NCBI GenBank assembly: GCA_964603585.1
Contig: CAZRVK010000001.1
Location: 207,856-271,855, forward strand
Length of the DNA stretch: 64,000 nt
Source of the DNA: an uncultured Planctomycetales bacterium
Lineage (GTDB): Bacteria; Omnitrophota; Gorgyraeia; Gygaellales; Profunditerraquicolaceae
Direction: 5' to 3'
Notes under the pieces: model-generated
Databases searched by the model: none
Seen by the model: the letters and a program-made list of their open reading frames with translations, nothing else
Told to the model about the DNA's origin: nothing
Translations under genes and position numbers: made by a program
Shown: one piece after another, positions 15,786 to 37,491 of the stretch
Layout: every line of letters starts with the position of its first letter
Position numbering within the stretch: the first letter of the stretch is position 1

Positions 15786-15868
15786 ATTAATTAAGCACGG
15801 GTAAAATTTACCCCGCCAGCTTCAAAAAGGCGGGGTAAATGTAGGATTTAAATAAATTAACCACGAAT

Positions 15869-16108: not shown

Positions 16109-16135
16109 TCTTACTCCTCCTTTGTCGAGTTTCAA

Positions 16136-16879
16136 CTATGCCATCACCATGCCACCATCAACTACTATTGTCTGGCCTGTAATATAGCTGGCTTCCTCCG
16201 AAGCCAGGAACAAGCAGGCGTTTGCCACATCCTTAGGTAAACCAAGCTTATTCATCGGGATCAGCGCAAGCATCTTCTGCTTGACTTCTTCAGGCAGTTT
16301 TGCTGTCATATCCGTCTGAATAAATCCAGGGGCTACCGCATTAACATTGATATTGCGGCTGGCAAATTCCTTGGCTGTTGTCTTGGTTAGAGCAATTATC
16401 CCGGCCTTTGATGCAGAATAATTAGCCTGCCCGGCGTTCCCGATTATCCCAATGATCGAAGCTATGTTAACGATCTTGCCATAACGTTGTTTTATCATCG
16501 GCTTAGAGATCGCCTTGGTGCAGTTAAAAGTCCCTTTTAGATTAACATTGATAACCGCATCCCAATCCGCATCACTCATTCTCAACATCAAATTATCCTT
16601 AGTGATGCCGGCATTGTTAACTAATATATCAACCTTTGTAAATTTGTCAAGAATTTTATTTACTCCCTGCTCCACAGAGGAATAATCCGTAACATTCAAT
16701 TCCAGCGCAAGCGATTTTCTGCCCATAGATTCAATCTGACGGCTGGTAACAGTTGACTTTTCCAGATTAATATCGCTTATTACCACGTCTGCGCCTTCAG
16801 CGGCAAAACCCAAGGCAATCTCCCTTCCGATCCCCTGGGCACTTCCCGTAACCAGAACCACCTTATCCTGAAATCTCAT
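16136..16879 (-). CDS. fabG: 3-oxoacyl-ACP reductase
   Basis: 247 aa SDR. Has VVLVTGSAQGIGREIA, NNAG, and the YSASKAG catalytic Tyr/Lys. Confidence 0.9.
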   Translation of the reverse strand: MRFQDKVVLVTGSAQGIGREIALGFAAEGADVVISDINLEKSTVTSRQIESMGRKSLALELNVTDYSSVEQGVNKILDKFTKVDILVNNAGITKDNLMLRMSDADWDAVINVNLKGTFNCTKAISKPMIKQRYGKIVNIASIIGIIGNAGQANYSASKAGIIALTKTTAKEFASRNINVNAVAPGFIQTDMTAKLPEEVKQKMLALIPMNKLGLPKDVANACLFLASEEASYITGQTIVVDGGMVMA

Positions 16880-16901
16880 CTTTTACCTCGCATAAAATTG
16901 A

Positions 16902-18793: not shown

Positions 18794-18823
18794 GAAACAC
18801 TCCGTTTGCCTGGACCTGGTTGT

Positions 18824-19825: not shown

Positions 19826-19897
19826 AGAAGTATTTTTTTTACCGAAAACAGGGAAGACCTGCCCGATTTCCGGCACCGATACAGGAGTCAGACTAAC

Positions 19898-20101
19898 TTA
19901 CTGTTTTCGGGGTTTCTTTTCTTTTAATTTAATATCCAATACCGGCCGACCGTGGTAATATCCGCAAACCCTGCAAACCACATGAGGCAGTTTAGGTTGC
20001 TTGCATTGAGGGCAAACCGCAAGGCTGGTTTTTTTTATTTTCCAATGCGTACGCCGGTTCCTCCCTCGCGTTTTGGAATGTCTTTGTTTAGGTAACGCCA
20101 C
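19898..20101 (-). CDS. rpmF: 50S ribosomal protein L32
   Basis: 67 aa. Begins MALPKQRHSKTRGRNRRTHWK. Contains a CxxC...CxxC zinc ribbon. Confidence 0.9.
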   Translation of the reverse strand: MALPKQRHSKTRGRNRRTHWKIKKTSLAVCPQCKQPKLPHVVCRVCGYYHGRPVLDIKLKEKKPRKQ

Positions 20102-20137
20102 TTTATCGCTCCTTCCGCTGCTTTAAAACCATTTTTT

Positions 20138-20545
20138 TTAGGCACAATCACATTTGTCTTGATTCAGATCTTTGCCGCATTTATGGCACAAACCTTTACA
20201 ATCTGGTTTGCACAAAGCCTGTATCGGATAATCCAGGATTATCTCCTGGCGGATATCACAAGACAGGTCAATAAACCGGGTATCCCTCTCCAGTTCATAC
20301 CCTAATTTAAAGTTCTTATTGTAAACCGAACCAAATTCATTCAGGCAGCGAGAACAAGTAAAAACCATCGGCGCAGTCAATGCTATCTCTACCGTAAGCG
20401 CATTGGTAATCCGATGAGCGTAAGCAACTACGCTTATCGGTTCTCTGAATTTAATCTGGTCGGTATCTAACTCCAAATCCTGCGGCAAGATCCGTTCTTT
20501 TAATTCTATACCTTCAGCCGGTATCTGATTAATATATATCTTCAT
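20138..20545 (-). CDS. yceD: YceD/DUF177 family protein
   Basis: 135 aa. Conserved position upstream of rpmF. Has the C-terminal Cys cluster CKPDCKGLCHKCGKDLNQDKCDC. Confidence 0.8.
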   Translation of the reverse strand: MKIYINQIPAEGIELKERILPQDLELDTDQIKFREPISVVAYAHRITNALTVEIALTAPMVFTCSRCLNEFGSVYNKNFKLGYELERDTRFIDLSCDIRQEIILDYPIQALCKPDCKGLCHKCGKDLNQDKCDCA

Positions 20546-23763: not shown

Positions 23764-24228
23764 CTACAACGTAGTCTGCTCTGCCGGTAAAGAACCAGAT
23801 CCCGGGACAGCTGGCTTTTCCCGGCGAGGATTGATCTTGCCTTGACGCACTTCCACTGTAAAAGAATCCGTGGAATACTCCTTGCCATTGATCCTGGTTT
23901 TAGCCGGGCCGATCTGGAGTGTGCCGGGATTCACCGGTTTTAGAACAAAAACAAAAACAAAAGTATTTTTTACCCCGGAAGAAGTGGCATTCAGTGAAGA
24001 TGAGCGCACCTGCGAAAGAACCCGCAAACCCGTAAATTCAGGCAGTTCAACCTTAGGAGACTTCTGGGAATCCGAAATAACAGTAAGCTTATACTTGATA
24101 AACTCATCTGTAGTAACAACATTTTTATCTACTTCACCATGGATGGAAATTTCCGCAAGAAGTGTATTAAAAGCGCACAAAACAAAAGTAAACAATAAAC
24201 ATATTGTGACCGGTATTGTCTTATTCAT
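23764..24228 (-). CDS. small exported hypothetical protein (BatD N-terminal-like beta-sandwich?)
   Basis: 154 aa. A signal peptide is present. Alternating hydrophobic beta-strand pattern. The BatD-like resemblance is weak. Confidence 0.35.
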   Translation of the reverse strand: MNKTIPVTICLLFTFVLCAFNTLLAEISIHGEVDKNVVTTDEFIKYKLTVISDSQKSPKVELPEFTGLRVLSQVRSSSLNATSSGVKNTFVFVFVLKPVNPGTLQIGPAKTRINGKEYSTDSFTVEVRQGKINPRREKPAVPGSGSLPAEQTTL

Positions 24229-24348
24229 ATTTTAATTATACACCCCTGATTTTTTATCTGTCAACACATATGATCACCTGCCACATAAAGCCATATAATT
24301 CTTTCGCATAGTTAAGCCATAAAAACTATTTGCGGCAGATCAAAATTA

Positions 24349-25347: not shown

Positions 25348-26001
25348 TTAGTATTTGTATGAAATACCGATAACACCAAGATAGGTATTGATCCCGCTGT
25401 TAGGATGGTCAATTCCGGCATTGGAAAGATGCCGTAAACGAAATTCACTCACCAAAGATAAATTCGGCTTAAAGAAATAATGCGCGCCAACAGCTCCTGT
25501 TTCAATGAAATTGAACTGTGTTGACTGCTCCTGGGTGTGCTGGGTCATATAAACCATTCCCACGCCAGCCTTTACAAAAGGCTGGAACTTCCAGTTCTCC
25601 GGGACAAGACCTAACTTCAGGAAAAAAGAATTTCCAACTTCCATATTCGAAGAAGGGTCCCAGACATAGGCTAAATACGGTTCTATCTGTAAATTTACCA
25701 AGGAAGACGGGTTAAATCCGATTCTTTTAGTCAGGTTCTTCAGGTTAAAATCGAGGTCTACGATAAAAGGAACAAAACGGTAATCCGGCTTTTTATCAAA
25801 AACACTTTTTGCCTTCAGTTTATTCCAAGCAAAGCCGCTAAGCAATTCAATGCCGGTAAACGGCATTAAAGGCTCTTTTTCCAATGATGCTCCGGTTTCG
25901 ACGGCTGCCTGTCCATCCACTTGAGCAGCCCAGGAAGGATAAAGAAAGGCAAAAATAAAACATATTGTGATGAGGAGCAATCTGCAGGGTAGCTTTATCA
26001 T
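25348..26001 (-). CDS. outer-membrane beta-barrel protein, lipid A 3-O-deacylase (PagL)-like
   Basis: 217 aa. Has a signal peptide and alternating beta-strand pattern, and ends in an aromatic residue (...GISYKY). A candidate His/Ser catalytic dyad lies in HLSNAGIDHPNSG near the C-terminus, as in PagL-type deacylases. Confidence 0.4.
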   Translation of the reverse strand: MIKLPCRLLLITICFIFAFLYPSWAAQVDGQAAVETGASLEKEPLMPFTGIELLSGFAWNKLKAKSVFDKKPDYRFVPFIVDLDFNLKNLTKRIGFNPSSLVNLQIEPYLAYVWDPSSNMEVGNSFFLKLGLVPENWKFQPFVKAGVGMVYMTQHTQEQSTQFNFIETGAVGAHYFFKPNLSLVSEFRLRHLSNAGIDHPNSGINTYLGVIGISYKY

Positions 26002-26121
26002 AATGATTTAATTATATTTACAGTTTTACTCTTGTCAATATTTTTTTATAAAATTACCTGCATGCATGTAAATTGCATAACCCCAAACATGCAACAGATA
26101 AGCTAATTACAAATGTTTTTT

Positions 26122-27348
26122 CTATATACGCCGGCACATCCTAACGGCTTTTTCCATTTCATTCTCCGAAATAAAAATACTCGTGGATAAAGTTATATGC
26201 CGCTTTGCCAAATAAGAAGCAGAAGGTAATTCTTTCTCCTGGATCACCCCTTTTAAATAATCATAGCCATTAACCGCAGAAGTATAAATTTGGGAAACCC
26301 CAAGCCCGGAGTTCTCAAACAGTTGCAGGGCCCTCTTGCGTTTTTGCTGGTCATCGAAAACCAAAGTTAAATACGGATATACGGCCTTTGCCCCTGCCGG
26401 TTCTTTTATCACCGTAACACCCGGAGTATCCTTAAGCCTATATATATAATACTCCGCTTTTTTACGCTGAGCGATAATCTGGCGGTCGATCTGATGAAAA
26501 CCAAGGTGGCCGATCATGTTCCTTAAAGCAGAAACCTTATGTGTAGGGAAGTGTTCACTAAAATACTCGATATTCGCCCTAAGCTTATTCCCCTGCATCT
26601 GCCAAAAGATCTGCGGCAGGCGGAAAACAAACCAGAAAAAAACAGGGTTATAGACAAAGGCATACCCGAACAACTCCGCGACCTTAAGGCCTTCGGAAAA
26701 AATGTCTTTTTTTACAAGCTCCGCGACCTTGCGGTTAACCACTTCTGTATATTCCTTTTTATTTACGGCGATCAAGCCTCCCTCATATATCGTCAATCCC
26801 TTGCCCCGGCACAGGCTGAAAAAAGAAAAATCCCCTAAAGTCCCCACCTTAGCCTGCCGATAGCAGGCCCCTAAACTCTGGGCACAATCTTCGATAATAA
26901 ATATCCCGTTCAACCGGCAGATATGAGAGATCTCCTCGAAGACCAGCGGCACTCCAGCCAGGTGGACTGCTACCACCGCCAAGATATCTTTATTCGAAGA
27001 ACATATCCTTTCAAGATCCCCGGGATCAAAATTAAAGTCCCGGGGGTTTATATCGCAAACCTGGACTTTAAGCCCTGCCCGCTTAATCGCCAAAGGCAGC
27101 AACGGGCAAACAAAAGCTGGAATGACCACGGTTTTTCTTGCGGATAGTTCTTTTAAGCTTTCAAGGATCAAATAAAATGCCGCGCTTCCGGAATAAACCA
27201 GCCATGCAGAATCAACACCAAGGTAGCCTCGAAAATCACCCTCTAAAGAGCCATTCCGGCAAGCTTTCTTTAACCCCGAAAAGATATCTTTCCAGTAAAC
27301 TGGCAGTCCGGCAGTTGGAGGGATTTCTCTAAACAGACTCATTTGCAT
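26122..27348 (-). CDS. DegT/DnrJ/EryC1/StrS-family PLP-dependent aminotransferase
   Basis: 408 aa. Family blocks present (IIEDCAQSLGA..KVGTLGDFSFFSLCRGKGLTIYEGG) with a PLP-lysine region. Confidence 0.75.
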   Translation of the reverse strand: MQMSLFREIPPTAGLPVYWKDIFSGLKKACRNGSLEGDFRGYLGVDSAWLVYSGSAAFYLILESLKELSARKTVVIPAFVCPLLPLAIKRAGLKVQVCDINPRDFNFDPGDLERICSSNKDILAVVAVHLAGVPLVFEEISHICRLNGIFIIEDCAQSLGACYRQAKVGTLGDFSFFSLCRGKGLTIYEGGLIAVNKKEYTEVVNRKVAELVKKDIFSEGLKVAELFGYAFVYNPVFFWFVFRLPQIFWQMQGNKLRANIEYFSEHFPTHKVSALRNMIGHLGFHQIDRQIIAQRKKAEYYIYRLKDTPGVTVIKEPAGAKAVYPYLTLVFDDQQKRKRALQLFENSGLGVSQIYTSAVNGYDYLKGVIQEKELPSASYLAKRHITLSTSIFISENEMEKAVRMCRRI

Positions 27349-27444
27349 TATCCTTACGAATATTTTCCTGTTTTATATTTTATTTTATGATAAAATGCCT
27401 TACGAATCAAGAGTTCACAGTATCTCCGGGACATCTTAAAACAA

Positions 27445-27861
27445 ATGAAAACAAAAAAAGTAACATTAAAAATTCTGTCATTCTTAATACTCACCGACCT
27501 TTTAGAAACCTTAACCCAGTTTTGTTTTAAGAAAAGCGCCGACCTGCAAAGCGCATTTTATATAAATACAATTACTGATACTTACCAATTCCTCAAAGTA
27601 ATCTTTTCTTCCGGCTACCTTTGGGTCGGTTTTATTTCCGTGTTCTTGACCTTCAGCATATGGTCAACGATACTTTCGAAAATCGATCTAAGTGTCGCCG
27701 TCCCTATCGCCAGTTTCAGCTACATATTAGTGCCCTTGGTCTCGATTGTCTTCCTGCATGAACAGGTTTCAATCCTTGACTGGACAGGGATATTCTTCAT
27801 CCTAACTGGAGTAATATTTGTTTCTCTTAGCAGTGAAAAAACCGGAGCTGTAAGTAAATGA
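27445..27861 (+). CDS. small 4-TM membrane protein, DMT/EamA half-transporter (ArnE/ArnF-like)
   Basis: 138 aa with 4 predicted TM helices. Overlaps the next gene by 4 bp (ATGA), which suggests a heterodimeric pair. Confidence 0.5.
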   Translation: MKTKKVTLKILSFLILTDLLETLTQFCFKKSADLQSAFYINTITDTYQFLKVIFSSGYLWVGFISVFLTFSIWSTILSKIDLSVAVPIASFSYILVPLVSIVFLHEQVSILDWTGIFFILTGVIFVSLSSEKTGAVSK

Positions 27862-28247
27862 AAAACAGCGCACTCTTTATAGTATCTCTTATCATCCTGG
27901 CTTCACTTTTTGATACCATCAATCAACTGTTCCTTAAAACCACCATAAACTCACTAGACTTAAATATAAACGGTTTTAAAAAAGCTGTCGGGTTCGTATT
28001 GAAACTGCTTACCAGGCCAAGGATCTGGGTCGGTTTCTTCTTCTGCTGTCTGTCCCTGGTAGTCTGGCTATTCGTGCTTTCAAAGGCCGACTTGAATTTC
28101 GCATTCTCGGTTGACAGTATGCATTATATTTTTATTGCTATCGCCTCAAAATTCATTTTAAAGGAAAAGGTTGGCTTTAAACGGTGGGTCGGAACCGCCT
28201 TTATTGTTTTAGGGATTATCTTACTAACTTTTAGCAACAGTAATTAA
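27858..28247 (+). CDS. small 4-TM membrane protein, DMT/EamA half-transporter (ArnE/ArnF-like partner)
   Basis: 129 aa with 4 predicted TM helices. Translationally coupled to the preceding gene. Confidence 0.5.
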   Translation: MKNSALFIVSLIILASLFDTINQLFLKTTINSLDLNINGFKKAVGFVLKLLTRPRIWVGFFFCCLSLVVWLFVLSKADLNFAFSVDSMHYIFIAIASKFILKEKVGFKRWVGTAFIVLGIILLTFSNSN

Positions 28248-28249
28248 TC

Positions 28250-29755
28250 CTATTTCAAATACCTAAGGACTAAATTAGCCGCATTGATCCCGGAAATAAA
28301 ACATCCGTGCACACCCCCTCCCGGAACAGTCCAGGCACCCGCTAAAAACAACCCGTTAACCGGAGTCTTCTGGGGCAGGCGGTTTATGCTTGACTCCGAG
28401 ACAGTTTGAGCGAACCCATAAATCGCCCCGTCATCAGACAAGGTGTATCTTTGCATGGTTTTTGGGGTCGCCGCATCCATTACCTCGATATTTTTAGATA
28501 ACCCAGGAAGATATTGTTCGGCACGCCGTATCAATTTATCGGCGACCTTAGCTTTTTTCTGCTGATACTCTTGGCGGCTTAAATTGCTCCAATGCGCGAA
28601 ACTATCGAAGGTAATGATCAGTAAACTGCCTTTTCCGTAAGGGACAATGCTGGGATCCACCTGGGCATGATCAGTTAAGATCAATGAACAACGGTCATAA
28701 TCGCCTAAAAGGCAATAATTAAAGTTTTCATCGTGGCTGTAAGAGGTACTGATCGATAACAACCCGTGGTCCATGCCTAAATCCTTTGCCGGTACCTTAA
28801 GCCCTAAATATACCTGAAATGCAGAAATTGACTTTTCCTTAACAGCCAAGCGATGGGCATACTTATCCTTGAGGTCCGCATGATCCAGTAACTGCGTCAT
28901 GGTCTGGATCGCAGAAGCGTTAGAAATTACGGCTTTGGCCTCAAATTCCTGGCCATCAACCGCCAGCACGGATAAGGAATATTTATTATGGGGGATTATT
29001 TTCTTGACCAAGGTGTTGAATCTTACCTGTGAGCCGTTTTCTTTTATTTTATCTGATATCGCACGAAAAAGCTGCAGAAATCCGCCCCGGACATAAGCGG
29101 TAGGATTATAAAAATAACCCCTAAAAACAATAAAGAAATAAAATGCCGAGAGTTTACTTGGCGCCAACCCCATAAACCTCCAGATATCACCAATGATGCC
29201 TTTGAGCCTTTGATCGCCGATATATTTATCCAGCACTCCAGATGCGGAGCCAGAGGACATACTGATAATAGCCGGATATAAAAAAGGGGCAAGAAGCAAA
29301 TTAATCAATTCCGGTAATTTCGAGTTATTGAACCGGTCAAATTGCTGATAAAACCCATCCAGATCAGAAAAAAGCTTCTCGATCCCGTTTTTTTCATGGG
29401 GGAAATTATTCTGTAAGAAAGCGATTAAATGCTCCCTGCTAAAATCCGCGGTAAAATCATGGTCCGGATAAATGATCCTGGCAAAATCTTTAAGCGGAAT
29501 GAATTCCACTTTTCTATCGACACCATATTCCTCAAGGAATTGCCGTATCTCTCCCTGGGGAGCAAGCGCATTCACACAATGTATGGCAGACTCGAAAATA
29601 AACCCTTTACGAAGAAAGGTTGTAGCATATCCTCCAGGAACAGGCTGTCTTTCCAAGACCAGGATTTTCTTGCCGGAAGCAGATAGTTTTAAAGCCGAAA
29701 CTAACCCCGCAACCCCGGCACCAATAATGATCGCATCATAACGCATGATCGTCAC
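28250..29755 (-). CDS. FAD-dependent oxidoreductase, phytoene desaturase (CrtI)-like / amine-oxidase fold
   Basis: 501 aa. The N-terminal dinucleotide-binding motif YDAIIIGAGVAGLVSALKL...LVLERQPVPGGY is present. Length and C-terminal GGGVHG fit CrtI-type enzymes. Confidence 0.7.
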   Translation of the reverse strand: MTIMRYDAIIIGAGVAGLVSALKLSASGKKILVLERQPVPGGYATTFLRKGFIFESAIHCVNALAPQGEIRQFLEEYGVDRKVEFIPLKDFARIIYPDHDFTADFSREHLIAFLQNNFPHEKNGIEKLFSDLDGFYQQFDRFNNSKLPELINLLLAPFLYPAIISMSSGSASGVLDKYIGDQRLKGIIGDIWRFMGLAPSKLSAFYFFIVFRGYFYNPTAYVRGGFLQLFRAISDKIKENGSQVRFNTLVKKIIPHNKYSLSVLAVDGQEFEAKAVISNASAIQTMTQLLDHADLKDKYAHRLAVKEKSISAFQVYLGLKVPAKDLGMDHGLLSISTSYSHDENFNYCLLGDYDRCSLILTDHAQVDPSIVPYGKGSLLIITFDSFAHWSNLSRQEYQQKKAKVADKLIRRAEQYLPGLSKNIEVMDAATPKTMQRYTLSDDGAIYGFAQTVSESSINRLPQKTPVNGLFLAGAWTVPGGGVHGCFISGINAANLVLRYLK

Positions 29756-29762
29756 CGTACAA

Positions 29763-30599
29763 TTATATGCTGTTTAGAAAAGCAATGAACTCCTGGGCAA
29801 CCCGGTCTTTTTCCTTATCAATAGTTATCATATGGTAACTATCTTCAATAACTATCAGGGATTTATTCATAGATCCAATATGATTAAGGACAAACTCGGC
29901 ATTTTTAAGACTGGTCATATCATCTTCTTTGGCGTGAATTATCAGGATAGGGGTTTGCACGCTCTTTAACTCTTTTTTTACGGTTTTAGTAAAAAGATGG
30001 TGCTGGTAAAGGCAGCTCATCGGGAAAAAAGGGCTTCCGAACAATAAAACCTTGTTGCTGAATTTCTTGGCACTGGCATCCTTATAAAACCTCTCAATGT
30101 TCCATCGCAACTCTTCATCTTTTAAACCATACGGCCAGCCTTCCCGGATATCCAGGCGGTTACGAATGAAAGGTATATGCCAGACCAGGTTCATTAAGGC
30201 CTTGCCTTTATGCAAAGCCCAGCCATCATAATATATAGTGGGCGCCAAAGCCACTATCCCGGATATCTGGTCCGGGAACTTATAGGCCAGGTGTATGCTC
30301 ATCAAAGCACCCAAAGACAACCCCCCGACATAAACCCGCAGATGATCTTTTTTTAAAAAATGCAGATCATCGGAGCAGGCCGAGGCAATCTCCTGCCAGG
30401 TAACCTTTTTCAACTCCCCTAAAGTCCCGCAGTGGCGCGGCAATGCATTGCAGAATACCGTATACCCTGCCTGATTCAGTTTCTTACCCAGATAACGCAT
30501 TTCCGAAGGAGTCCCGGTGATCCCGTGGATCAAAAGCACTGCCTTGCCATTATCGCCCTTAAGCAAGAAATTAAATTTCTTAGAATTATTAATAGTCAT
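29763..30599 (-). CDS. alpha/beta-fold hydrolase (esterase/thioesterase/acyltransferase type)
   Basis: The nucleophile elbow is GLSLG. An HG oxyanion region (LLIHGITG) is present. I moved the start to ATG 30597-30599 (MTINNSKK), because the longer track ORF would overlap the divergent gene and its promoter. Confidence 0.7.
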   Translation of the reverse strand: MTINNSKKFNFLLKGDNGKAVLLIHGITGTPSEMRYLGKKLNQAGYTVFCNALPRHCGTLGELKKVTWQEIASACSDDLHFLKKDHLRVYVGGLSLGALMSIHLAYKFPDQISGIVALAPTIYYDGWALHKGKALMNLVWHIPFIRNRLDIREGWPYGLKDEELRWNIERFYKDASAKKFSNKVLLFGSPFFPMSCLYQHHLFTKTVKKELKSVQTPILIIHAKEDDMTSLKNAEFVLNHIGSMNKSLIVIEDSYHMITIDKEKDRVAQEFIAFLNSI

Positions 30600-30655
30600 A
30601 ATGTGGGTTATTATATCATAAAATCCATTGATGTGAATTAATATTGCAGCCTTTC

Positions 30656-30683
30656 CTGACAGATAAAATACCGTATATATAAT
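30656..30683 (+). promoter_or_regulatory. candidate sigma70 promoter of the DUF482-like gene (cTGACA-N16-TATAAT)
   Basis: Plus strand: cctgacagataaaataccgtataTATAATtg. It lies 35 nt upstream of ATG 30719, in the divergent intergenic region. Confidence 0.3.
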
Positions 30684-30718
30684 TGCATTTATCCTGTTTT
30701 TTGCTATACTTCTAATCC

Positions 30719-31849
30719 ATGGCCGATAAAAACAGTTTAACATTTAAGATCAAGCACACCATTAACGACATCCCTGAATCTGCCTGGAGGGACCTTTTTG
30801 ATAAAGGCATAGTAGAAAATTACGGTTATCATAAGACCCTCGAGGAATCCGGGCTGAAAGAATTCTCATTCGCATACCTCACGGCAGAACGCGCAAATAA
30901 GCTTTGTGCGATCGTGCCATTTTTTATCATGGATTTCTCATTCGATACCCTGCTGCCAGATCACTTTAAAAAAATCGCCAAAAGGCTCAAACCATACATC
31001 AAAATGAAAGTGCTTTTTTTAGGCGCCCCGACAACCGAAGAATTTTATTTCGGGCTTTCTTCTGAAGAAAACATAGAGCCGTTCTTTAACCAGGCCATTC
31101 AGGAACTCCATTCGTTCTGCAAGGAAAAGAATGTCTGCGGACTGAATTTTTACAACATCTCCGATAAAAATGCCGCCTTACGCCGGTATTTACAAAAGAA
31201 CGGGTTCATTGAGATGGAAAGCCTGCCCACAACAATGATCGAGATAAAAGCCTCCTCCCTGGATGATTATATCCGCGGCCTAAGCAAAAATATGCAAAAA
31301 GACATCCGCCGGAAGATAAACCGATCACAAAGCCAAGTCCAGCTTACTACCGAAACACGTGATAATATAGACGATATCAGCCAGGAGATATACCGTTTAT
31401 ATTTAAACAATTTCTCTGATTCCGAAGTACGTTTTGAGGTTTTAACCGAGGATTTCTTTCGCAGGATTTGCCGCAATATGCCGAATGAGGCCAAATATTT
31501 TATAACTTACGCCGGAACAAAAATCGTGGCATTCAACTTGTTCATGGCAAAAGACGGCCTTTTTATAGACAAATTCATCGGTTTCGATGAAGAAACCCGT
31601 ATAAAATATCATTTATACTTCACCACCTTCTGCCACAATATCGATTGGTGTATAAAAAACGGCTGTAATTTTTACCAACCGGGAACCACTGACTACCACC
31701 CTAAGCTAAGGCTGGGGGCAAAACTGATCCCCCTTTATAACCAGGCAAAAGGATTCAACCCGCTCTTGCACAATTTTCTAAAATTAATCTCAAGATTTAT
31801 CCAACCGATCAATCTTGACCCATCATTGAAAGAACTTAGAAAACCTTAA
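30719..31849 (+). CDS. GNAT-fold acyltransferase, DUF482/FemAB-like (PEP-CTERM-associated type) family
   Basis: 376 aa. The N-terminal pattern INDIPESAWRDLFDKG...YHKTLEESGL...KLCAIVPFFIMD resembles the FemAB-like/BioF2-like N-acyltransferase family. Overall length and the twin-GNAT architecture fit. Confidence 0.5.
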   Translation: MADKNSLTFKIKHTINDIPESAWRDLFDKGIVENYGYHKTLEESGLKEFSFAYLTAERANKLCAIVPFFIMDFSFDTLLPDHFKKIAKRLKPYIKMKVLFLGAPTTEEFYFGLSSEENIEPFFNQAIQELHSFCKEKNVCGLNFYNISDKNAALRRYLQKNGFIEMESLPTTMIEIKASSLDDYIRGLSKNMQKDIRRKINRSQSQVQLTTETRDNIDDISQEIYRLYLNNFSDSEVRFEVLTEDFFRRICRNMPNEAKYFITYAGTKIVAFNLFMAKDGLFIDKFIGFDEETRIKYHLYFTTFCHNIDWCIKNGCNFYQPGTTDYHPKLRLGAKLIPLYNQAKGFNPLLHNFLKLISRFIQPINLDPSLKELRKP

Positions 31850-33063
31850 AGGAAAGAAGCCTTCTTCATTACCAAACTGGCATTATTACCGCCAAAGGCT
31901 GAAGCGTTATTGAGGGCAATATCGACCTTCATTTGCCTGGCAACATTAGGCACACAATCGATATCGCATTCCGGATCGGGAGTTTGGTAATTAATCGTAG
32001 GAGGGACAATATCGTTTTGGAGTGCCAAAGCGCAAGTGATCGCTTCGATCGCGGAAGCAGCACCCATCGTATGCCCAAGCATGGATTTAATAGAACTCAC
32101 TGCAACCTTACCTTGGATACCCGCAAAAACCGCCTTAATTGCGGCGGATTCGACTTTATCATTAACGGGAGTGCCGGTGCCATGGGCACTGACATAATCC
32201 ACATCTTCTGCCTTGACATTAGCCTGCTTTAACGCATTCCGCATGGACCGGGCAACACCATCAGCTTCTGGTGCAGTCATATGATACGCATCACAGCTTA
32301 AGCCGTACCCGAGGACTTCCGCATAGATCACCGCCTTGCGGTTTAAGGCATTCTCCATACTCTCTAAAACCACAATACCTGCGCCTTCTCCTACCATCAT
32401 CCCTTTGCGGTTCTTATCAAAAGGCTGGCATTTAACCGGCGCTACCGCCAAAAGCCGGTTAAATCCGGTAAAAGCAAGGCGGGAAAAAGCATCCACCCCT
32501 CCGGCAAGCATCATCTCTGCCTGCCCCATGCGGATCAAGTCACAGGCGTATCCGATCGCATAATTCCCCGCAGCACAGGCAGTAGGGATCACCAAATTCG
32601 GACCACTTATCCCTAACTCATTGGCGACATTAAAAGCCAGGACATTTGCCGGATACTGGAAAATAAGCTCCGGGTTTATCGCATTCACTCCCCCTTTTAT
32701 CCAGGAAGAATTAATCACTTCTAAAACTTGAGACTCCCCCATTGTCGTTCCTAAAATCACTCCGGTTTCCCGGTGATCCATGGAAACTGCCTTTAATCCG
32801 GCATCCTTTAACGCCAATTTGGCAGAAGCAATCGCCAGGCATGAAGTCCGGCCCAGATTAGCTATTTTATTCTTTGCAATAAATAATGCCGGATCAAAAT
32901 CCTTAACCTCACCGCCGTTATGCGTTGGATAATTTGAAGTATCAAAAGAGGTGATCTCCGAGATCCCGGAAACACCTTTTAAGAGGGCCGGCCAAAAAGC
33001 ATCCCTGCCAATACCAATCGAAGATATGACTCCTATACCCGTGATTACGATACGCTTATTCAT
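31846..33063 (-). CDS. 3-oxoacyl-ACP synthase (FabF/KS type, catalytically complete)
   Basis: 405 aa. Has the Cys block PTACAAGNYAIG and the His motifs AHGTGTPVND and GHTMGAAS. This is a second KS, distinct from the housekeeping fabF. Confidence 0.85.
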   Translation of the reverse strand: MNKRIVITGIGVISSIGIGRDAFWPALLKGVSGISEITSFDTSNYPTHNGGEVKDFDPALFIAKNKIANLGRTSCLAIASAKLALKDAGLKAVSMDHRETGVILGTTMGESQVLEVINSSWIKGGVNAINPELIFQYPANVLAFNVANELGISGPNLVIPTACAAGNYAIGYACDLIRMGQAEMMLAGGVDAFSRLAFTGFNRLLAVAPVKCQPFDKNRKGMMVGEGAGIVVLESMENALNRKAVIYAEVLGYGLSCDAYHMTAPEADGVARSMRNALKQANVKAEDVDYVSAHGTGTPVNDKVESAAIKAVFAGIQGKVAVSSIKSMLGHTMGAASAIEAITCALALQNDIVPPTINYQTPDPECDIDCVPNVARQMKVDIALNNASAFGGNNASLVMKKASFL

Positions 33064-33068
33064 AAATT

Positions 33069-33527
33069 TTACAATCCCTGGCCATCCATTACATCCTCTT
33101 TAGCACTTAAGGATATCTCTGCCTTGGCGACATCACGGTCTGCAACCTGGGCAAGCGCCTCAACTATCGCCACACCAGACAACATCTTCACCGGAGTTAC
33201 CGTAATTTTAAGCTGATCACCGGGTAAAACCGGGCTCAAATACCTGACCTTAGCTGCACCCAAATAATAAGACATCTTCTTTTGCCCTAAAGCAACGGAT
33301 TTTGCGGAATAAAAAAGCACGATCGCCGCTTGTGCCATTGCCTCCAGGATCAAAACCCCCGGCATCACCGGCTTATCCGGGAAATGTCCGGCAAAGAACT
33401 GCTCGTTCATACTGACATTTTTCACCGCCACGACTTTTTTGGCGGGATCTATCTCCACCACCCGATCGATCATCAAAAAAGGGAACCGTTGAGGCAGGAT
33501 CCTTTGGATTTCCTCGATATTAAGCAT
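33069..33527 (-). CDS. fabZ: 3-hydroxyacyl-ACP dehydratase
   Basis: 152 aa. Has the FabZ hot-dog motifs FFAGHFPDKPVMPGVLILEAMAQ. Confidence 0.85.
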   Translation of the reverse strand: MLNIEEIQRILPQRFPFLMIDRVVEIDPAKKVVAVKNVSMNEQFFAGHFPDKPVMPGVLILEAMAQAAIVLFYSAKSVALGQKKMSYYLGAAKVRYLSPVLPGDQLKITVTPVKMLSGVAIVEALAQVADRDVAKAEISLSAKEDVMDGQGL

Positions 33528-33777
33528 TACTTGCTCCTTTACTATCTAAAAACTGCCTGGCTACCGCCACAGTCTCTTTTAATGTAGTAAGCTGCGCAAG
33601 TTTATCCTCGGGGATCGCGATCTTATATTTTTTCTCTATCGCCGCCATGATCTCTAAGGCCATCATCGAATCAACCCCCAGATCCTCAAAGAACCTGGCA
33701 TCAGGCGTAACCTCTGCCGGAGTTTTTTCAATGATCTCTGCGATGATCCCTCTTATCTCTTCCTCGATATTTTGCAT
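33520..33777 (-). CDS. acyl carrier protein (second copy)
   Basis: 85 aa. The phosphopantetheine motif DLGVDSMMALEI is present. Confidence 0.85.
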   Translation of the reverse strand: MQNIEEEIRGIIAEIIEKTPAEVTPDARFFEDLGVDSMMALEIMAAIEKKYKIAIPEDKLAQLTTLKETVAVARQFLDSKGASNA

Positions 33778-33787
33778 ACATACCCTC

Positions 33788-34534
33788 CTATTTTATTCCA
33801 AGCCCGCCGTCTATGATAATTGTCTGTCCCGTAATATACCCGGAAGCGTCATCAAGCAGGAATTTTACCGCAAAAGCAACATCCTCGGCCTGGCCAAACC
33901 TGCCAAAAGGAATATTTTCTTTAATCACTGTTTTATATTTATCATTCAAAGCAGCCACCATGTCAGTTTCAATAAAACCCGGCGCGACCGCATTCACCCG
34001 GATATTATAAGGCCCCACTTCCTTTGCCAATGATTTGGTAAAACCGATCATTCCGGATTTAGAAGCAGCATAATTGCTTTGGCGCGACATCCCCACCACC
34101 CCGCTCACAGAAGAAATATTTACGATACTTCCTTTTTTCTGTTTGAGAAAAGTCACAATGGCATTACGGGTGACATTGAACATCCCTCCAAGATTAGTAT
34201 CGATCACCTCCTGCCAATCATCTTTGGTCATCATCATTAGCGCTTTATCCCTGGTAATACCAGCGTTATTGACTAAAATATCCAGCCTCCCAAAATTCTC
34301 CAGGGTCTTGCCTACCAACTCCTTCGATTTCTCAAAATCACGGGCATCCATCTGTAATGCCAGATATTTACCCCCTAAAGCCTTGATCTCATCTCCAAGG
34401 TCATTCGCCTGGCTTGTACTCTTTAAATAAGTAAAAACGATATTAGCGCCCTCTCTGGCTAACATTAAGATGATCGCTTTGCCAATACCTCTGGTGCCGC
34501 CGGTAACTATCGCTGTCTTCTGCTCAAATAACAT
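33788..34534 (-). CDS. 3-oxoacyl-ACP reductase (SDR, FabG-like; second copy)
   Basis: 248 aa. Has TAIVTGGTRGIGKAI, NNAGI, and the YAASKSG catalytic motif. Confidence 0.85.
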   Translation of the reverse strand: MLFEQKTAIVTGGTRGIGKAIILMLAREGANIVFTYLKSTSQANDLGDEIKALGGKYLALQMDARDFEKSKELVGKTLENFGRLDILVNNAGITRDKALMMMTKDDWQEVIDTNLGGMFNVTRNAIVTFLKQKKGSIVNISSVSGVVGMSRQSNYAASKSGMIGFTKSLAKEVGPYNIRVNAVAPGFIETDMVAALNDKYKTVIKENIPFGRFGQAEDVAFAVKFLLDDASGYITGQTIIIDGGLGIK

Positions 34535-34536
34535 AT

Positions 34537-35772
34537 TTATCCCCGGAATTTAGAAAATACAGCACTGGCAGTGCGCGCCTGTGATGCACAGCTGTTAACC
34601 AGGACATTGTTCACCTCGCATTCAAGCGTTTTACCCGTAACAAAATTAAGCCCGCATTCTGGATCCGCCTCTGCATAATTAGCCATCGCCGGCACACCCT
34701 GGCGGGTTAAAGCCAACACAGCCTCGATACTCTGCAAAACCCCCCCGGCACTATAAGATTCGCCCACAATGGATTTAAGCGCCGTTACCGGTGGTAGTTC
34801 TCCAACAGAAGAAAAAACGTTTTTTATGGAAATGGCTTCGATCTTATCGGCGTAAACTGTAGAATTGGCGGCAGCAGAGATATAACCGATCTGATCCAGG
34901 CCGATTGCGGATTCTCGGGATGCCATCTGCATTGACTGGGTCAAACCTGCTTGGCCAAAACCCCAGCCAAAACCAGAAACTTCCGCATAGATATTTGCCC
35001 CGCGGTCAACCGCAGATCCCAGTTCTTCCAATACCAATATCCCGGCACCTTCAGATAAAACAATACCATTCCTTCTTTTATCGAATGGACAGCTCAACTC
35101 CACACTCCCCAAGGACGTGCCAGCTAAAAATCCGGTTTTATAAAAACCCAAATAGATCTGCTCGCACAACTCCTCCACTGCCCCAGCCAGGATAAATTTC
35201 GCCCGGCCTAAACGCAAAAAATCATAAGCATATTTTAATGCATCCAGGGAAGCAGAGAATCCGGTCGAGATCGTGGTATTTAGCCCTTTAATGTTGAATC
35301 TAAGTGAAACCTGGCTCGCCGGGGAGTTGATCACCGTGTTAGGAAAAAGAGCGGGATTAACATACTGCGGGCCATCTATCACGGCATCCCGGTCAAAATT
35401 ACTGATACTGCTGACACTGCCCAGGGTATTACCCACAACTACCCCAGCCTCACAGGTATTACTGTCATCCATTATGACCTTTGCGTCATCCAAGGCCAAT
35501 TTGGTCGCGCATAAAAGCAGCTTTGTGCTTCGGTCAAGCGTCCTAAGCCCTTTTGCGCCTAAGATCGCTTCCGGAGCAAAACCCCCTATCTCTCCTGCTG
35601 TTTTTGCGCTAAATCCAGCGGTATCAAACAAAGAAACCGGTTTTATCCCGGAAATAGAATTAAAAACAGCCTGCATAAAGGCATCTTTTCCGACAGCATT
35701 AGAGGCAACTACCCCCAAACCGGTAACAACCACTCTTTTTCTCATGAATTTCCCCTTAGAACTGACATTCAA
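34537..35772 (-). CDS. ketosynthase-like protein lacking the Cys-His-His catalytic triad (chain-length-factor-like partner)
   Basis: It has the KS fold throughout. At the position of the active-site Cys it reads ISTGFSAS, against ATACASG in FabF. At the first His it reads AAANSTV, against AHGTST. At the second His it reads GESYSAGG, against GHLLGAAG. The likely true start is ATG 35743-35745 (MRKRVVVTGLG), with an AAGGGG RBS upstream. Confidence 0.7.
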   Translation of the reverse strand: MNVSSKGKFMRKRVVVTGLGVVASNAVGKDAFMQAVFNSISGIKPVSLFDTAGFSAKTAGEIGGFAPEAILGAKGLRTLDRSTKLLLCATKLALDDAKVIMDDSNTCEAGVVVGNTLGSVSSISNFDRDAVIDGPQYVNPALFPNTVINSPASQVSLRFNIKGLNTTISTGFSASLDALKYAYDFLRLGRAKFILAGAVEELCEQIYLGFYKTGFLAGTSLGSVELSCPFDKRRNGIVLSEGAGILVLEELGSAVDRGANIYAEVSGFGWGFGQAGLTQSMQMASRESAIGLDQIGYISAAANSTVYADKIEAISIKNVFSSVGELPPVTALKSIVGESYSAGGVLQSIEAVLALTRQGVPAMANYAEADPECGLNFVTGKTLECEVNNVLVNSCASQARTASAVFSKFRG

Positions 35773-35787
35773 TCAGGCAATTTGAAT
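35767..35787. promoter_or_regulatory. palindromic candidate operator ATTCAA-N9-TTGAAT at the upstream end of the KS operon
   Basis: A perfect 6-bp inverted repeat lies immediately downstream of the predicted -10 and around the predicted transcription start. Confidence 0.3.
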
Positions 35788-35791
35788 TTAT

Positions 35792-35820
35792 ATTATATCT
35801 CTCTTAAAACTTTATCTCAA
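35792..35820 (-). promoter_or_regulatory. candidate sigma70 promoter (TTGAGA-N17-TATAAT) for the CLF-KR-ACP-DH-KS operon
   Basis: Minus-strand reading: cTTGAGAtaaagttttaagagagaTATAATat. It lies in the 121-bp gap upstream of the CLF-like gene. Confidence 0.4.
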
Positions 35821-35893
35821 GGATTCTTTTTATATGACGCAACCGTTATTTACAATACCAGAACTATCATCCCGGAAGAAAACATATTCAATA

Positions 35894-36832
35894 TCACATG
35901 AGCGCCTCGGCTATCCGGATATTCGTCTGTCCGTTCGTTGCATCAATCTGCCTGTCATCAACATCTTTTGCGCTATACTCTTTCGGATGATCAAGGGTTG
36001 AACAAATCGATTTAAACCTGCCGTGTATCTTTATCCGGGAATACTCCCCGGTAACATCTAATCCAACGATATCCGTATTCTCCTTGAAAAATTTCAGGAT
36101 AAAAAGCAGCTCATCCAGGGAAAAACGGCCTTCCTCCCAGTTGGTCAAGGCATACTTACGGGTCAGACAATCCTTATCAATACTGATATATACCTTATCG
36201 GTGGCAAAGCGCCCTATCATAGAAGACAGGAATTTTCCCATCTCCCTGCCTTTAAGTTCCTGCCAGGATATTTCATTATAATACCAGCTTTTTTTTAATC
36301 CAATAGACAGATTTTGCGGCACATCCCTGAATATTACCCTGGCAGGTTTATGCGAATATGGATAAATCTCCAGCCGGTTATTCCTCATAGCAGCCAAATT
36401 CCCGCTTTCCAAATGCAAAGTCGAAATATCATCAGAGGCTACACCGAATAAAACCACTTTCTCAATGTTTTGTGAGCGTAACGCCCGGCTAACCCAGGAA
36501 CCACATCCGGTTTTCGGAGGCAAGGTATCCCAATCAGGGTGATTATCAAAAACAATCAGGTTTAGAGGCTGACTGAACTGCTCTAAGAGGATGCTGGAGA
36601 TATGATGGAAGTCACCGGACCCAAAGAAAGTTATCCGGTTCTTATCGGAAAAGGCCAGCGCCTGCTTTATCTGGATCTCGGCGTTTTTATCCAGCCAGAA
36701 CCGGCAATCAAGCCCTATTTTCAGCAAATCAACTACTTCGGGATTGAAACGCCTGATAAAATCATCCTGCCTTAAAAGGCTGTTATCAAAATTGAGTATG
36801 CGGATTTGACCGGGAAGTAATCGATTCATCAA
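35894..36832 (-). CDS. arginase/agmatinase/formiminoglutamase-fold (ureohydrolase superfamily) protein, substrate unknown
   Basis: 312 aa. Counterparts of the arginase metal-binding motifs appear in the canonical order. GSGDFHHIS stands for GGDHS, FDNHPD for DAHAD, SIDKDCL for SxDxDxLDP, and GLDVTGEYS for DVVE. Confidence 0.45.
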   Translation of the reverse strand: MMNRLLPGQIRILNFDNSLLRQDDFIRRFNPEVVDLLKIGLDCRFWLDKNAEIQIKQALAFSDKNRITFFGSGDFHHISSILLEQFSQPLNLIVFDNHPDWDTLPPKTGCGSWVSRALRSQNIEKVVLFGVASDDISTLHLESGNLAAMRNNRLEIYPYSHKPARVIFRDVPQNLSIGLKKSWYYNEISWQELKGREMGKFLSSMIGRFATDKVYISIDKDCLTRKYALTNWEEGRFSLDELLFILKFFKENTDIVGLDVTGEYSRIKIHGRFKSICSTLDHPKEYSAKDVDDRQIDATNGQTNIRIAEALM

Positions 36833-37491
36833 ACCATTCTTCTTAAACCAGCATAGACGCTTTTTAAATCCCTGAACGGGATACAGCCGCGCCTTATCTT
36901 TTTAAAATATTCCAACAGATCATCCTTGGCAAAAACAATATCTGCCTGCTGGGCAGGGCAAATATCAGAACGGCCGTCTCCGATATAAATGATCCTCTCC
37001 TTAAACCTGTTTCTTAATAAATTGTTCCTCTTGCAATGAGCACAATAAGAACAAGCGCGGTTATGATGCGGAAAATAAAGCAATAATCTGTTTTTGGAGA
37101 ATTTCAGCCGGTTAGAACAAACCTTTATGCCGCAAATATCATTTTGGCGTAGGATGACATTGATAATAAAAGAAAAATTATCGCTTAATATCTTGACCGG
37201 GATATTCTTTGATTTAAGTAAAACAAGTATTTTCTTGAAATAAGGGTCGATCTTTATGCCGGACAAATAGCGCAATAAATCTGTCTTGGATAAACGCACG
37301 CCTGCTAATTGCCCTCTAAGGCAGGCCCGGGAGCCAATAACCCCCTTTTTCCACTGTCTTTCAAGTTCAACCCATTTCTTATCTATCGAGAAACGTTTAA
37401 TGATATCATCCAAAACATCAACCTTTGTGATCGTATTGTCAAAATCAAAGAAAACTGCATGTCCAGATAAGAAATTCATATATTCCGCCAT
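36829..37491 (-). CDS. HAD-superfamily phosphatase (MtnX/phosphoserine-phosphatase-like subfamily) with an inserted Cys cluster
   Basis: 220 aa. Motif I is FFDFDNTIT (DxDxT). A C-terminal GDGRSD motif is present. There is an unusual CSYCAHC segment. Confidence 0.55.
   Translation of the reverse strand: MAEYMNFLSGHAVFFDFDNTITKVDVLDDIIKRFSIDKKWVELERQWKKGVIGSRACLRGQLAGVRLSKTDLLRYLSGIKIDPYFKKILVLLKSKNIPVKILSDNFSFIINVILRQNDICGIKVCSNRLKFSKNRLLLYFPHHNRACSYCAHCKRNNLLRNRFKERIIYIGDGRSDICPAQQADIVFAKDDLLEYFKKIRRGCIPFRDLKSVYAGLRRMV

Follow-up and report, generated by a model that had tools for sequence, protein, structure and literature searches.

A Fused Gene Block of Omnitrophota with a Core Related to Anammox Cluster I and an Adjoining Amine and Transferase Module

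We analysed a 64,000-nucleotide stretch of DNA (the window) from an uncultured Planctomycetales bacterium that GTDB places in Omnitrophota (assembly GCA_964603585.1, contig CAZRVK010000001.1, positions 207,856 to 271,855 of the forward strand), and in it a block of 14 genes at positions 25348–37491 for which the initial annotation recognised no described system. This view no longer holds for the core of the block. Its active ketosynthase (KS1), its catalytically dead ketosynthase (KS2), its FabZ-type dehydratase and its acyl carrier protein (ACP) are closest to the proteins of anammox Cluster I, the leading candidate for making ladderane lipids. Judged by sequence, the core is a relative of Cluster I in four of its six genes and, loosely, in a fifth, which encodes a CrtI-like flavoenzyme, and it fails the sixth, a B12 radical SAM gene. 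We hold it very probable that this part of the block, module P, encodes a specialised type II fatty acid synthase (FAS-II) of the Cluster I type. The remaining genes belong to module A, in which a DegT-family aminotransferase, a ureohydrolase, a HAD phosphatase, a Fem-type GNAT transferase and a pair of small transporters form a conserved unit found so far only in Omnitrophota. The most likely product of the fused modules is an amine-bearing molecule of the cell envelope, either an aminolipid or a lipid carrier bearing an amino sugar, which would be N-acylated with a special acyl chain or aminoacylated, and would not be a ladderane. The amino-modified or N-acylated lipid sent to the envelope, which had been suggested initially, stays plausible as a product class. 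The finding is more specific than what could be seen at that stage: the block provides a comparison set and points to an envelope-related pathway, and is less of note as an unrecognisable enzyme mix.

Relation of module P to anammox Cluster I

In Kuenenia stuttgartiensis, Cluster I (kuste3603–3608) encodes amxACP, amxFabZ, amxFabF2, amxFabFmut, a phytoene-dehydrogenase homologue and a B12 radical SAM enzyme, and the cluster has been described as exclusive to anammox bacteria. Searches against the PDB paired the block proteins with those of this cluster. KS1 best matched 9S5H chain B (521 bits), followed by Iga11, the ketosynthase from the type II polyketide synthase (PKS) of ishigamide, with 371 bits and by FabF proteins with about 330 bits; KS2 best matched 9S5H chain C (338 bits, the next match scoring 201) and FabZ the amxFabZ protein of 7QV0 chain A (136 bits). 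The best matches of the block ACP were 7QV0 chain D, 7AUF and 9S5I chain E, chains which we take to be amxACP. The 7QV0 entry is the structure of amxFabZ from Cluster I, and the sequence matches suggest that 9S5H and 9S5I are the entries of the amxFabF2/amxFabFmut heterodimer of a 2026 preprint.

The comparison with Kuenenia paralogues, for which partial sequences published as a supplement to Javidpour et al. 2016 were used, gave for KS1 47% identity to kuste3605 over the first 118 residues (next kuste3606, 37%), for KS2 46% to kuste3606 (next kuste2805, 37%), for FabZ 48% to kuste3604 (next kuste3339, 32%) and for the block ACP 43% to kuste3603, as against 26% to the canonical ACP kustd1387. 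The best Kuenenia matches of the window's canonical FabF and AcpP were kustd1386 and kustd1387, respectively. For a full-length comparison, metagenomes were scanned with kuste3608, which yielded 78 loci, many of them complete anammox clusters. Identities to the proteins of the anammox loci were 58–60% for KS1 (amxFabF2), 41–45% for KS2 (amxFabFmut), 45–50% for FabZ and 42–48% for ACP. In a neighbour-joining tree of 35 ketosynthase sequences with 100 bootstraps, the Omnitrophota KS1 group was sister to amxFabF2 (90/100), and the canonical FabFs fell into a separate group (100/100).

The kinship extends to single residues. The amxFabZ hallmarks described in PMC10139942 are an Ile in place of Gly in the tunnel and the loss of basic ACP-binding residues. 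The FabZ of the window reads EAMAQAAIVL where that of E. coli reads EAMAQATGIL, and two basic residues of its ACP-binding patch are lost (K102/R103 to L/S, R121 to L). All four other Omnitrophota FabZ homologues that were aligned share the Gly to Ile change, with varying residues at the patch positions (L, then H/S/A, then I/I/L/M). KS2, which is 402 aa long from its database start, lacks the whole Cys-His-His triad; Phe, Ala and Glu stand in its place, whereas the dead subunits of anammox bacteria have Val or Thr, Asn or Cys, and Glu. The change of the second His to Glu is common to every dead subunit, anammox or otherwise.

Module P and Cluster I thus have in common an active and a dead ketosynthase, a dedicated ACP, a FabZ with the tunnel Ile and an adjacent gene for a CrtI-family flavoenzyme, and the two ketosynthases, FabZ and ACP are the mutual closest relatives of the block's proteins. 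They differ in gene order, which is dead ketosynthase, ketoreductase, ACP, dehydratase, ketosynthase in the block and ACP, dehydratase, ketosynthase, dead ketosynthase, phytoene dehydrogenase, radical SAM enzyme in anammox bacteria. A FabG gene lies inside the block and none is found in the anammox Cluster I loci, the CrtI-like protein of the block is only about 30% identical to its counterpart, and the block adds a lipase-like hydrolase, the Fem-type GNAT and the amine module. The hosts differ too, an Omnitrophota bacterium on the one side and an anammox planctomycete on the other. The most conspicuous difference is the lack of the B12 radical SAM gene in the block: tblastn with kuste3608 and kuste2803 found no match in the window and only matches of 21–27% identity in four related loci, and neither the window nor the Omnitrophota loci examined contained a radical SAM gene of the kuste3608 type (TIGR04072). 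Because this gene is lacking and the CrtI relation is loose, we do not file the block as a ladderane cluster.

Some of the relations are looser. The KS2 group was sister to amxFabFmut with modest support (61/100). The CrtI-like protein is only 27–32% identical to the homologues from the anammox loci, its identity to kuste3607 and to kuste3336 is alike (31%), with 24% to Pantoea CrtI, and kuste3607 is itself without CrtI activity or an assigned function.

Radical SAM genes of other kinds were met in the scans. B12 radical SAM genes of HpnJ/BchE-like type adjoin module P between recG and dusB in three relatives (L006, L009, L022). Such a gene beside module P in L054 (17303–18757) scored 57 bits against the TIGR04072 cutoff of 360, and a ladderane-type identity was rejected for the genes of this kind near module P. 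Two other loci, from metagenomes, carry a kuste3608-like radical SAM gene, 63–64% identical (L093 5136–7600 and L095 11556–14000), with an active-KS/dead-KS pair that has an F/S/E triad and branches outside the anammox-plus-Omnitrophota groups. These two loci suggest that the KS/dead-KS device with a radical SAM enzyme reaches beyond anammox bacteria.

The ketosynthase, dehydratase, ACP and ketoreductase genes of the block had been taken for a second set with a dead ketosynthase partner. They are a second set because a canonical FAS-II operon, plsX-fabH-fabD-fabG-acpP-fabF, sits in the same window (14532–19876), with an AcpP of classical type (15869–16108) and FabG at 16136–16879; a block that was the sole FAS-II set of the organism would have counted as ordinary, and this is not the case. 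Against the FabF equivalog cutoff of 494 bits, the canonical FabF scored 639, KS1 441 and KS2 273 bits, and KS1 is 45% identical to the window's own FabF. The whole run yceD-(rpmF)-plsX-fabH-fabD-fabG-acpP-fabF (14532–20545) has the strand of the block and is about 5 kb away from it, and in the window recG, a BatD-like gene and dusB separate the block from the canonical operon.

Ladderane-like clusters outside anammox bacteria are already known. Rattray et al. 2009 found similar clusters in Desulfotalea and Geobacter, an antiSMASH survey reported 'ladderane' clusters in Omnitrophota metagenome-assembled genomes (MAGs) and left their function open, and a catalogue of pairs of ketosynthase and chain-length factor includes Omnitrophica. 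The clusters of the MAGs and of Desulfotalea/Geobacter resemble the block in their FAS-II-like character, their divergent or dead FabF paralogues and their amine-oxidase-family 'phytoene dehydrogenase' genes. The reports on them differ from the present analysis in being automated labels or synteny notes without gene-level orthology, module analysis or a link to amine and transferase genes. Compared with open-access papers and preprints, three points appear to be new: the gene-by-gene sister relation to the anammox proteins, in which the amxFabZ hallmark and the common His to Glu change are included; the consistent lack of the radical SAM enzyme; and the fusion with an Omnitrophota-specific module of amine and Fem-type transferase genes.

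The biosynthesis of ladderanes has long been unsolved. Anammox bacteria are not open to genetic manipulation, and no in vitro reconstitution of the pathway has been achieved. The current case for Cluster I rests partly on its being 'encountered exclusively' in ladderane producers. Across Omnitrophota, sister-group relatives of four Cluster I proteins occur beside a CrtI-like gene and without the B12 radical SAM gene, and Omnitrophota are listed among the phyla of the Planctomycetes–Verrucomicrobia–Chlamydiae (PVC) group together with Planctomycetes, the phylum of anammox bacteria. The Omnitrophota set can be regarded as a natural 'minus cyclase' cluster, which sets a likely ladderane-specific radical SAM enzyme apart from a general short-chain acyl module. 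It is also a simpler group of genes to express and a natural comparison set for ladderane research.

Two separable modules in Omnitrophota

A scan of one genome per species gave 48 loci related to the block. In their titles, 42 are assigned to Omnitrophota or Omnitrophica, five to 'uncultured Planctomycetales' and one to 'bacterium', the last six with the same gene content, and all homologues of the DUF482 protein that have a source name come from Candidatus Omnitrophota. These loci divide the block into two separable modules. Module P (28250–35772) holds the genes for the CrtI-like protein, the hydrolase, in part of the loci the Fem-type protein, KS1, FabZ, ACP, FabG and KS2. Module A, which in the window occupies 25348–28247, 30719–31849 and 35894–37491, comprises in relatives the HAD phosphatase, ureohydrolase, hydrolase, DegT, Fem-type and two EamA genes, with a class III aminotransferase gene after that of the HAD phosphatase and a PagL-like gene at the end as further, variable members. 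Module A without any ketosynthase or ACP gene was found in about 20 related loci, and many relatives have module P between rsmD and recG, directly beside the canonical FAS-II operon. Counts were made on those 22 related loci whose sequence extends for at least 6 kb to either side: module P was present in seven, module A in 12, both in two and neither in five.

A check proposed initially was whether the block is conserved as a unit. Its edges are as they were then drawn, yet it is a fusion of two units that are usually separate. In favour of a unit is the same fused and interleaved 14-gene order, from the PagL-like to the HAD gene, which the window shares with L003 between dusB and rluD and which is found again in L019, L020 and L041 in an unrelated context, between a TPR gene and a gene for a peptidoglycan-binding protein. 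There one flank holds cbiM, polyprenyl synthase and TPR genes; the other, besides the gene for the peptidoglycan-binding protein, holds GDP-sugar genes and truD. What did not stand is the constant association, as the modules are apart in most relatives. The Fem-type gene is also seen alone beside recG, with neither module within 10 kb, in L004, L018 and L030 (48–54% identical). For L050, which has module A only, and L055, which has module P only, both from one metagenome, an origin in a single genome is disfavoured by their GC content (43.9% vs 47.8%) and by the tetranucleotide correlation between them (0.84).

Around the anammox clusters, up to a distance of 10 kb, no gene of module A was found, and neither was a hydrolase or FabG gene; for the hydrolase, Fem-type and amine module genes this holds for the 78 loci of the kuste3608 scan. 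The DegT protein keeps the region of the conserved Lys and scores far below the cutoffs of all NCBIfam equivalogs. Its best PDB match is Fic25 (8GYH, 73 bits), which acts on a keto acid bound to a carrier protein, followed by nucleotide-sugar or inosose aminotransferases, including ArnB and perosamine synthase, and its gene is kept in 30 of the 48 related loci with 45–58% identity. In two lineages GDP-mannose genes adjoin the block at its HAD end, a hint that the substrate might be a GDP-4-keto-6-deoxy sugar. In L019, genes for GDP-mannose 4,6-dehydratase (Gmd) and an epimerase/reductase (16935–18981) stand beside this end, and in L052 (14681–17238), as well as in L015, those for a class I mannose-6-phosphate isomerase (ManA) and an RmlD-like protein. 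These GDP-mannose and sugar genes were rejected as a constant neighbour of module A, each being seen in one lineage. The two EamA proteins best match ArnE and ArnF among NCBIfam families, with 33–45 bits (33–36 for the first protein) against cutoffs of 92–99, and neither gene occurs without the other in relatives.

The Fem-type protein has a tandem-GNAT Fem fold, and its best structural matches in a fold search use aminoacyl-tRNA. A PDB sequence search with the family profile gave no match, and the fold search alone was informative. The likeness to Fem and MprF proteins ends at the fold: identity to them is 11–13%, there is no fused flippase domain, and the Pfam families are FemAB_like/DUF482 and not FemAB or LPG_synthase_C. 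In the literature on DUF482 (PF04339, COG3146), an earlier prediction of a 'pterin-dependent enzyme' has since been invalidated, and for argolaphos the GNAT proteins AlpO (COG3146) and AlpF (pfam13480) have been proposed, as a proposal only, to be peptide aminoacyl-tRNA ligases. We consider the Fem-type protein to be the likely coupling enzyme. The GNAT acyltransferase of the initial annotation is right as to the fold, which is of the Fem/MprF-type tandem kind, but N-acyltransfer is one of two options because the best fold matches use aminoacyl-tRNA.

The hydrolase gene had been given a start at 30743. A start at 30599 is likelier, as it agrees with the gene call on an identical metagenome contig (278 aa), with the length in relatives (276–287 aa) and with a promoter-like site at 30637–30610. 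The longest ORF (open reading frame), open to 30743, overlaps the start of the Fem-type gene. With the corrected start the protein has neither a signal peptide nor a membrane anchor; its best PDB matches are monoacylglycerol lipases and carboxylesterases (72–84 bits). The hydrolase gene is present in 39 of the 48 related loci and adjoins the CrtI-like gene in 23.

The ureohydrolase has a true arginase fold with conserved motifs of the binuclear-metal ligands, and it belongs to an Omnitrophota-centred family, and the best PDB match of the HAD protein is human phosphoserine phosphatase (55 bits). The class III aminotransferase that relatives encode between these two is 464 aa long (L052 12461–13855), is 68–91% identical among loci and is much better kept than its neighbours. 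It is missing from L019, L020 and L044 as it is from the window, where its sole relative is an argD-like gene at 1918–3111 with 29% identity. In 11 loci with module A and without module P, the HAD gene is preceded by a radical SAM gene of the AmmeMemoRadiSam system (TIGR04337, 340 bits; for example L050 8011–9045).

The PagL-like protein begins with a signal-like segment and carries an H-x-S motif, in the form RHLSNAG. Its gene is tied to the block only loosely: it adjoins the amine module in two contexts, that of the window, L003, L019 and L020 and that of L044, and in L040 it stands beside recG/BatD without the amine module. Module A as a whole may define an envelope molecule of a phylum without isolates.

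Proposed function and competing explanations

The reading that we prefer joins the two modules: an amine supplied by module A would be coupled by the Fem-type enzyme to an acyl chain built by module P, to give a product of the envelope. We put the chances of this whole chain of steps at about even. Gene content, folds, orthology-like relations and conservation can be read directly from the loci, and from them we infer the chain length, the acceptor, the donor of the GNAT enzyme and the destination of the product. That the modules are thought to cooperate at all is mainly because the fused order recurs in two contexts, with a single shared hydrolase and Fem-type gene.

In anammox bacteria, the active and the dead ketosynthase form a heterodimer like the polyketide pair of ketosynthase and chain-length factor (2026 preprint); this heterodimer catalyses the decarboxylation of malonyl-ACP and favours C6 and C8 probes over C16, and amxFabZ prefers chains up to C6–C8. 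By analogy, KS1 and KS2 would form a heterodimer in which the dead KS2 is the partner resembling a chain-length factor, and together with the block ACP, FabG and the Ile-narrowed FabZ they would assemble a dedicated chain of short to medium length, possibly unsaturated. The block lacks an enoyl reductase, and the CrtI-family flavoenzyme is assumed to set the saturation by reducing or desaturating the chain. For the lipase-like alpha/beta hydrolase we assume a part in the off-loading or transfer of the acyl chain, a role that fits because this gene is kept with the ketosynthase genes even where the Fem-type gene is missing (L055). The amine would be made or tailored by the DegT aminotransferase, the HAD-IB phosphatase and the ureohydrolase, the last removing an amidino or urea unit. 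The Fem/MprF-type tandem GNAT would couple this amine to the module P chain, the ArnE/F-like membrane pair would move the product, or a lipid-linked form of it, across the inner membrane, and a PagL-like outer-membrane esterase would be loosely attached to the module.

Several observations tell against this scheme. Both modules are together in just two of the 22 well-flanked loci, and because they are apart in most relatives, their functional link is drawn solely from the repeated fusion. L055 has module P with the hydrolase and CrtI-like genes and without the Fem-type gene. The class III aminotransferase, encoded between the HAD and ureohydrolase genes in 23 related loci, is missing in the window. 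The best structural matches of the Fem-type fold use aminoacyl-tRNA and not acyl-ACP, and the block contains no glycosyltransferase, ArnT-like transferase or nucleotidyl-sugar enzyme. The preference for short chains was measured on the anammox proteins and would apply to the block by homology.

A broader reading seems to us somewhat doubtful, and we offer it as a tentative one. The ketosynthase, dead ketosynthase, ACP and narrowed FabZ could be an older device, shared within the PVC group, for making a short acyl unit. In anammox bacteria it would supply just the linear C6–C8 part of ladderane lipids; in Omnitrophota, the Fem-type transferase would pass the unit to an amine, giving a new class of N-acylated aminolipids or glycolipids in the envelope. 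The Omnitrophota in question are ultra-small and possibly host-dependent bacteria.

Among the competing explanations, the one that survives best, an unlikely one that has nevertheless to be reckoned with, sees two unrelated pathways side by side. Module P would make unusual fatty acids for membrane phospholipids or hydrocarbons, as has been proposed for the anammox/Desulfotalea clusters, and module A would carry out an Arn-like decoration of lipid A or lipopolysaccharide with an amino sugar. The DegT protein would then act as ArnB, the small pair as ArnE/F and the PagL-like protein in the remodelling of lipid A, with transient N-acylation and de-acylation in place of ArnA and ArnD. The separation of the modules, put at 19 of the 22 well-flanked loci, is what this explanation expects, as is the occurrence of module P without the Fem-type gene, and Rattray et al. 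tied related clusters to polyunsaturated hydrocarbons. The likeness to the Arn pathway of 4-amino-arabinose lipid A lies in a DegT aminotransferase that matches sugar aminotransferases including ArnB and perosamine synthase, in a four-helix membrane pair nearest to ArnE/ArnF and in a nearby member of the PagL family of lipid A deacylases; the GDP-mannose genes beside the block in two lineages (L019; L015/L052) would also be in keeping with it. However, all scores against the Arn equivalogs are far below the cutoffs, with 56 bits against 631 for ArnB and the values given above for ArnE/ArnF, and the sugar genes are present in one lineage each. No formyltransferase, GT2, deformylase or GT83 domain was found in the block, and homologues of ArnA, ArnC, ArnD and ArnT are absent from it, as is any glycosyltransferase; the ureohydrolase, the HAD-IB phosphatase and the Fem-type GNAT are there instead. 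The interleaved order (A, P, A) in two unrelated contexts, with one hydrolase and one Fem-type gene shared, also argues against two independent pathways.

An improbable alternative takes the Fem-type protein as an aminoacyl-tRNA-dependent enzyme of the FemX/MprF kind, which would put an amino acid, e.g., arginine, on the head group of a lipid or sugar. The ureohydrolase would trim the guanidino group (Arg to Orn), the hydrolase would be a de-aminoacylase and the small membrane pair would replace the flippase domain of MprF. Aminoacyl-phosphatidylglycerol synthases are often paired with hydrolases of the alpha/beta-hydrolase type, and the Fem-type gene and the hydrolase gene are a constant pair, seen in 39 of the 48 loci. 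The intact fold and ligands of the ureohydrolase agree with such a role, and the proposals made for AlpO and AlpF of argolaphos point in the same direction. On the other side, the hydrolase with its corrected start lacks the signal peptide and the membrane anchor, and the dedicated ACP system, which is often joined to the Fem-type gene, would be left without a role.

The initial annotation had likened the core to aryl-polyene and type II PKS clusters. With these (ishigamide Iga11/Iga12; aryl-polyene) the block shares a heterodimer of active and inactive ketosynthases, a discrete ACP, a ketoreductase and a dehydratase and the lack of an enoyl reductase; its FabZ has faint ApeI/ApeP-like Pfam matches, and Iga11 is the second-best PDB match of KS1. 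An aryl-polyene or classical type II polyketide pigment cluster is very improbable all the same, since the best matches and the tree place both ketosynthase subunits with the FAS-type pair of anammox bacteria, to which the block is more similar than to any of these systems. In addition, the dead subunit has Phe and not Gln at the position of the Cys, and the FabZ tunnel is narrowed as in the amxFabZ with its preference for short chains. The PKS accessory genes are also missing: Pfam searches of the 14 proteins found no ammonia-lyase, CoA ligase, second ACP, cyclase/aromatase, LolA-like or MMPL domain, in agreement with the earlier remark on the lack of ammonia-lyase, CoA-ligase and MMPL genes.

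Least probable is the synthesis of ladderane or ladderane-like cyclobutane lipids by the block in Omnitrophota: four proteins are closest to Cluster I, a CrtI-family gene is adjacent and antiSMASH labels such clusters of Omnitrophota MAGs 'ladderane', but this synthesis is unlikely because neither the window nor any Omnitrophota locus examined encodes the Cluster I B12 radical SAM enzyme, which is the candidate for cyclisation, ladderanes have been reported from anammox bacteria only, and direct evidence for a ladderane role is lacking even for the anammox cluster.

Layout of the block and its surroundings

The 14 ORFs follow one another with almost no spacing (Table 1). On one side the block is flanked by coaD, rsmD, recG and dusB and on the other by rluD, lgt, lspA, a dksA-like gene and ileS. 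The ORFs and the flanking gene families bear out the initial description of a 14-gene block between housekeeping operons, and each of its domain calls was reproduced by the Pfam and NCBIfam profile searches.

Table 1. Genes and promoter-like sites of the block (window coordinates)
Feature	Position	Strand	Remarks
PagL-like outer-membrane beta-barrel esterase	25348..26001	-	Pfam PagL 61 bits
DegT/DnrJ/EryC1-family pyridoxal-phosphate aminotransferase, divergent	26122..27348	-	Pfam 144 bits
EamA/DMT half-transporter, first of pair	27445..27861	+	Pfam EamA
EamA/DMT half-transporter, second of pair	27858..28247	+	Pfam EamA
CrtI/CrtISO-family FAD oxidoreductase	28250..29755	-	TIGR02734 196 bits, cutoff 238
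Lipase/esterase-like alpha/beta hydrolase, predicted cytosolic	29763..30599, ORF open to 30743	-	Pfam Hydrolase_4
Fem/MprF-type tandem-GNAT transferase	30719..31849	+	Pfam FemAB_like/DUF482 plus Acetyltransf_6
Active FabF-like ketosynthase (KS1)	31846..33063	-	Triad Cys163, His294, His331
FabZ-type dehydratase	33069..33527	-	Best PDB match amxFabZ
Dedicated ACP, amxACP-like	33520..33777	-	Best PDB matches presumed amxACP chains
FabG-type 3-oxoacyl-ACP reductase, second copy	33788..34534	-	TIGR01830 309 bits, above cutoff
Catalytically dead ketosynthase partner (KS2)	34537..35772	-	Cys to Phe, His to Ala, His to Glu
Ureohydrolase-fold enzyme (arginase/agmatinase superfamily)	35894..36832	-	Weak Pfam Arginase match, metal-ligand motifs kept
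HAD-IB phosphatase (MtnX/phosphoserine-phosphatase-like)	36829..37491	-	TIGR01489 117 bits, above cutoff
Promoter-like site upstream of PagL-like gene	26011..26038	-	TTGACA, 16 nt spacer, TATAAT; 12/12, consensus match only
Promoter-like site, hydrolase side of divergent pair	30637-30610	-	11/12
Promoter-like site, Fem-type-gene side of divergent pair	30656-30683	+	11/12
Promoter-like site upstream of dead-KS/FabG/ACP/FabZ/KS operon	35792..35820	-	11/12

The observation that genes switch to the plus strand only within the block was confirmed, in that its three plus-strand genes are the sole ones in the window with family support. The other free-standing plus-strand ORF of at least 110 aa is that at 62–436 (124 aa), which stands alone and is without a family match. 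An ATGA overlap joins the stop of the first EamA gene to the start of the second. The HAD gene shares 4 bases with the ureohydrolase gene and 16 with the upstream rluD (37476–37491), and because of the latter overlap the rluD edge of the block is not transcriptionally insulated. Read-through from the rluD-lgt-lspA operon into the ureohydrolase and HAD genes may be possible; in L019 the HAD gene follows the gene for the peptidoglycan-binding protein instead.

The block had also been credited with promoter-like elements of its own. Their number does not distinguish it, as 34 sites were found in the region and 31.2 +/- 5.8 in shuffled sequences, which is not above chance. The four best matches (11–12/12), however, all fall into intergenic stretches; one each is found directly upstream of the hydrolase gene, of the Fem-type gene, of the PagL-like gene and of the dead-KS operon. 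These positions are suggestive, on a match to the consensus only.

A scan of the window against Rfam gave no RNA families. Pfam and NCBIfam gave no match for an ORF of 201 aa (12511–13116) that is squeezed in between leuC and leuD. Between recG and dusB lies the gene for a small BatD-domain protein with a signal-like N-terminus (23764–24228), and it is preceded by a 12/12 match to the sigma-70-like consensus at 24235–24264.

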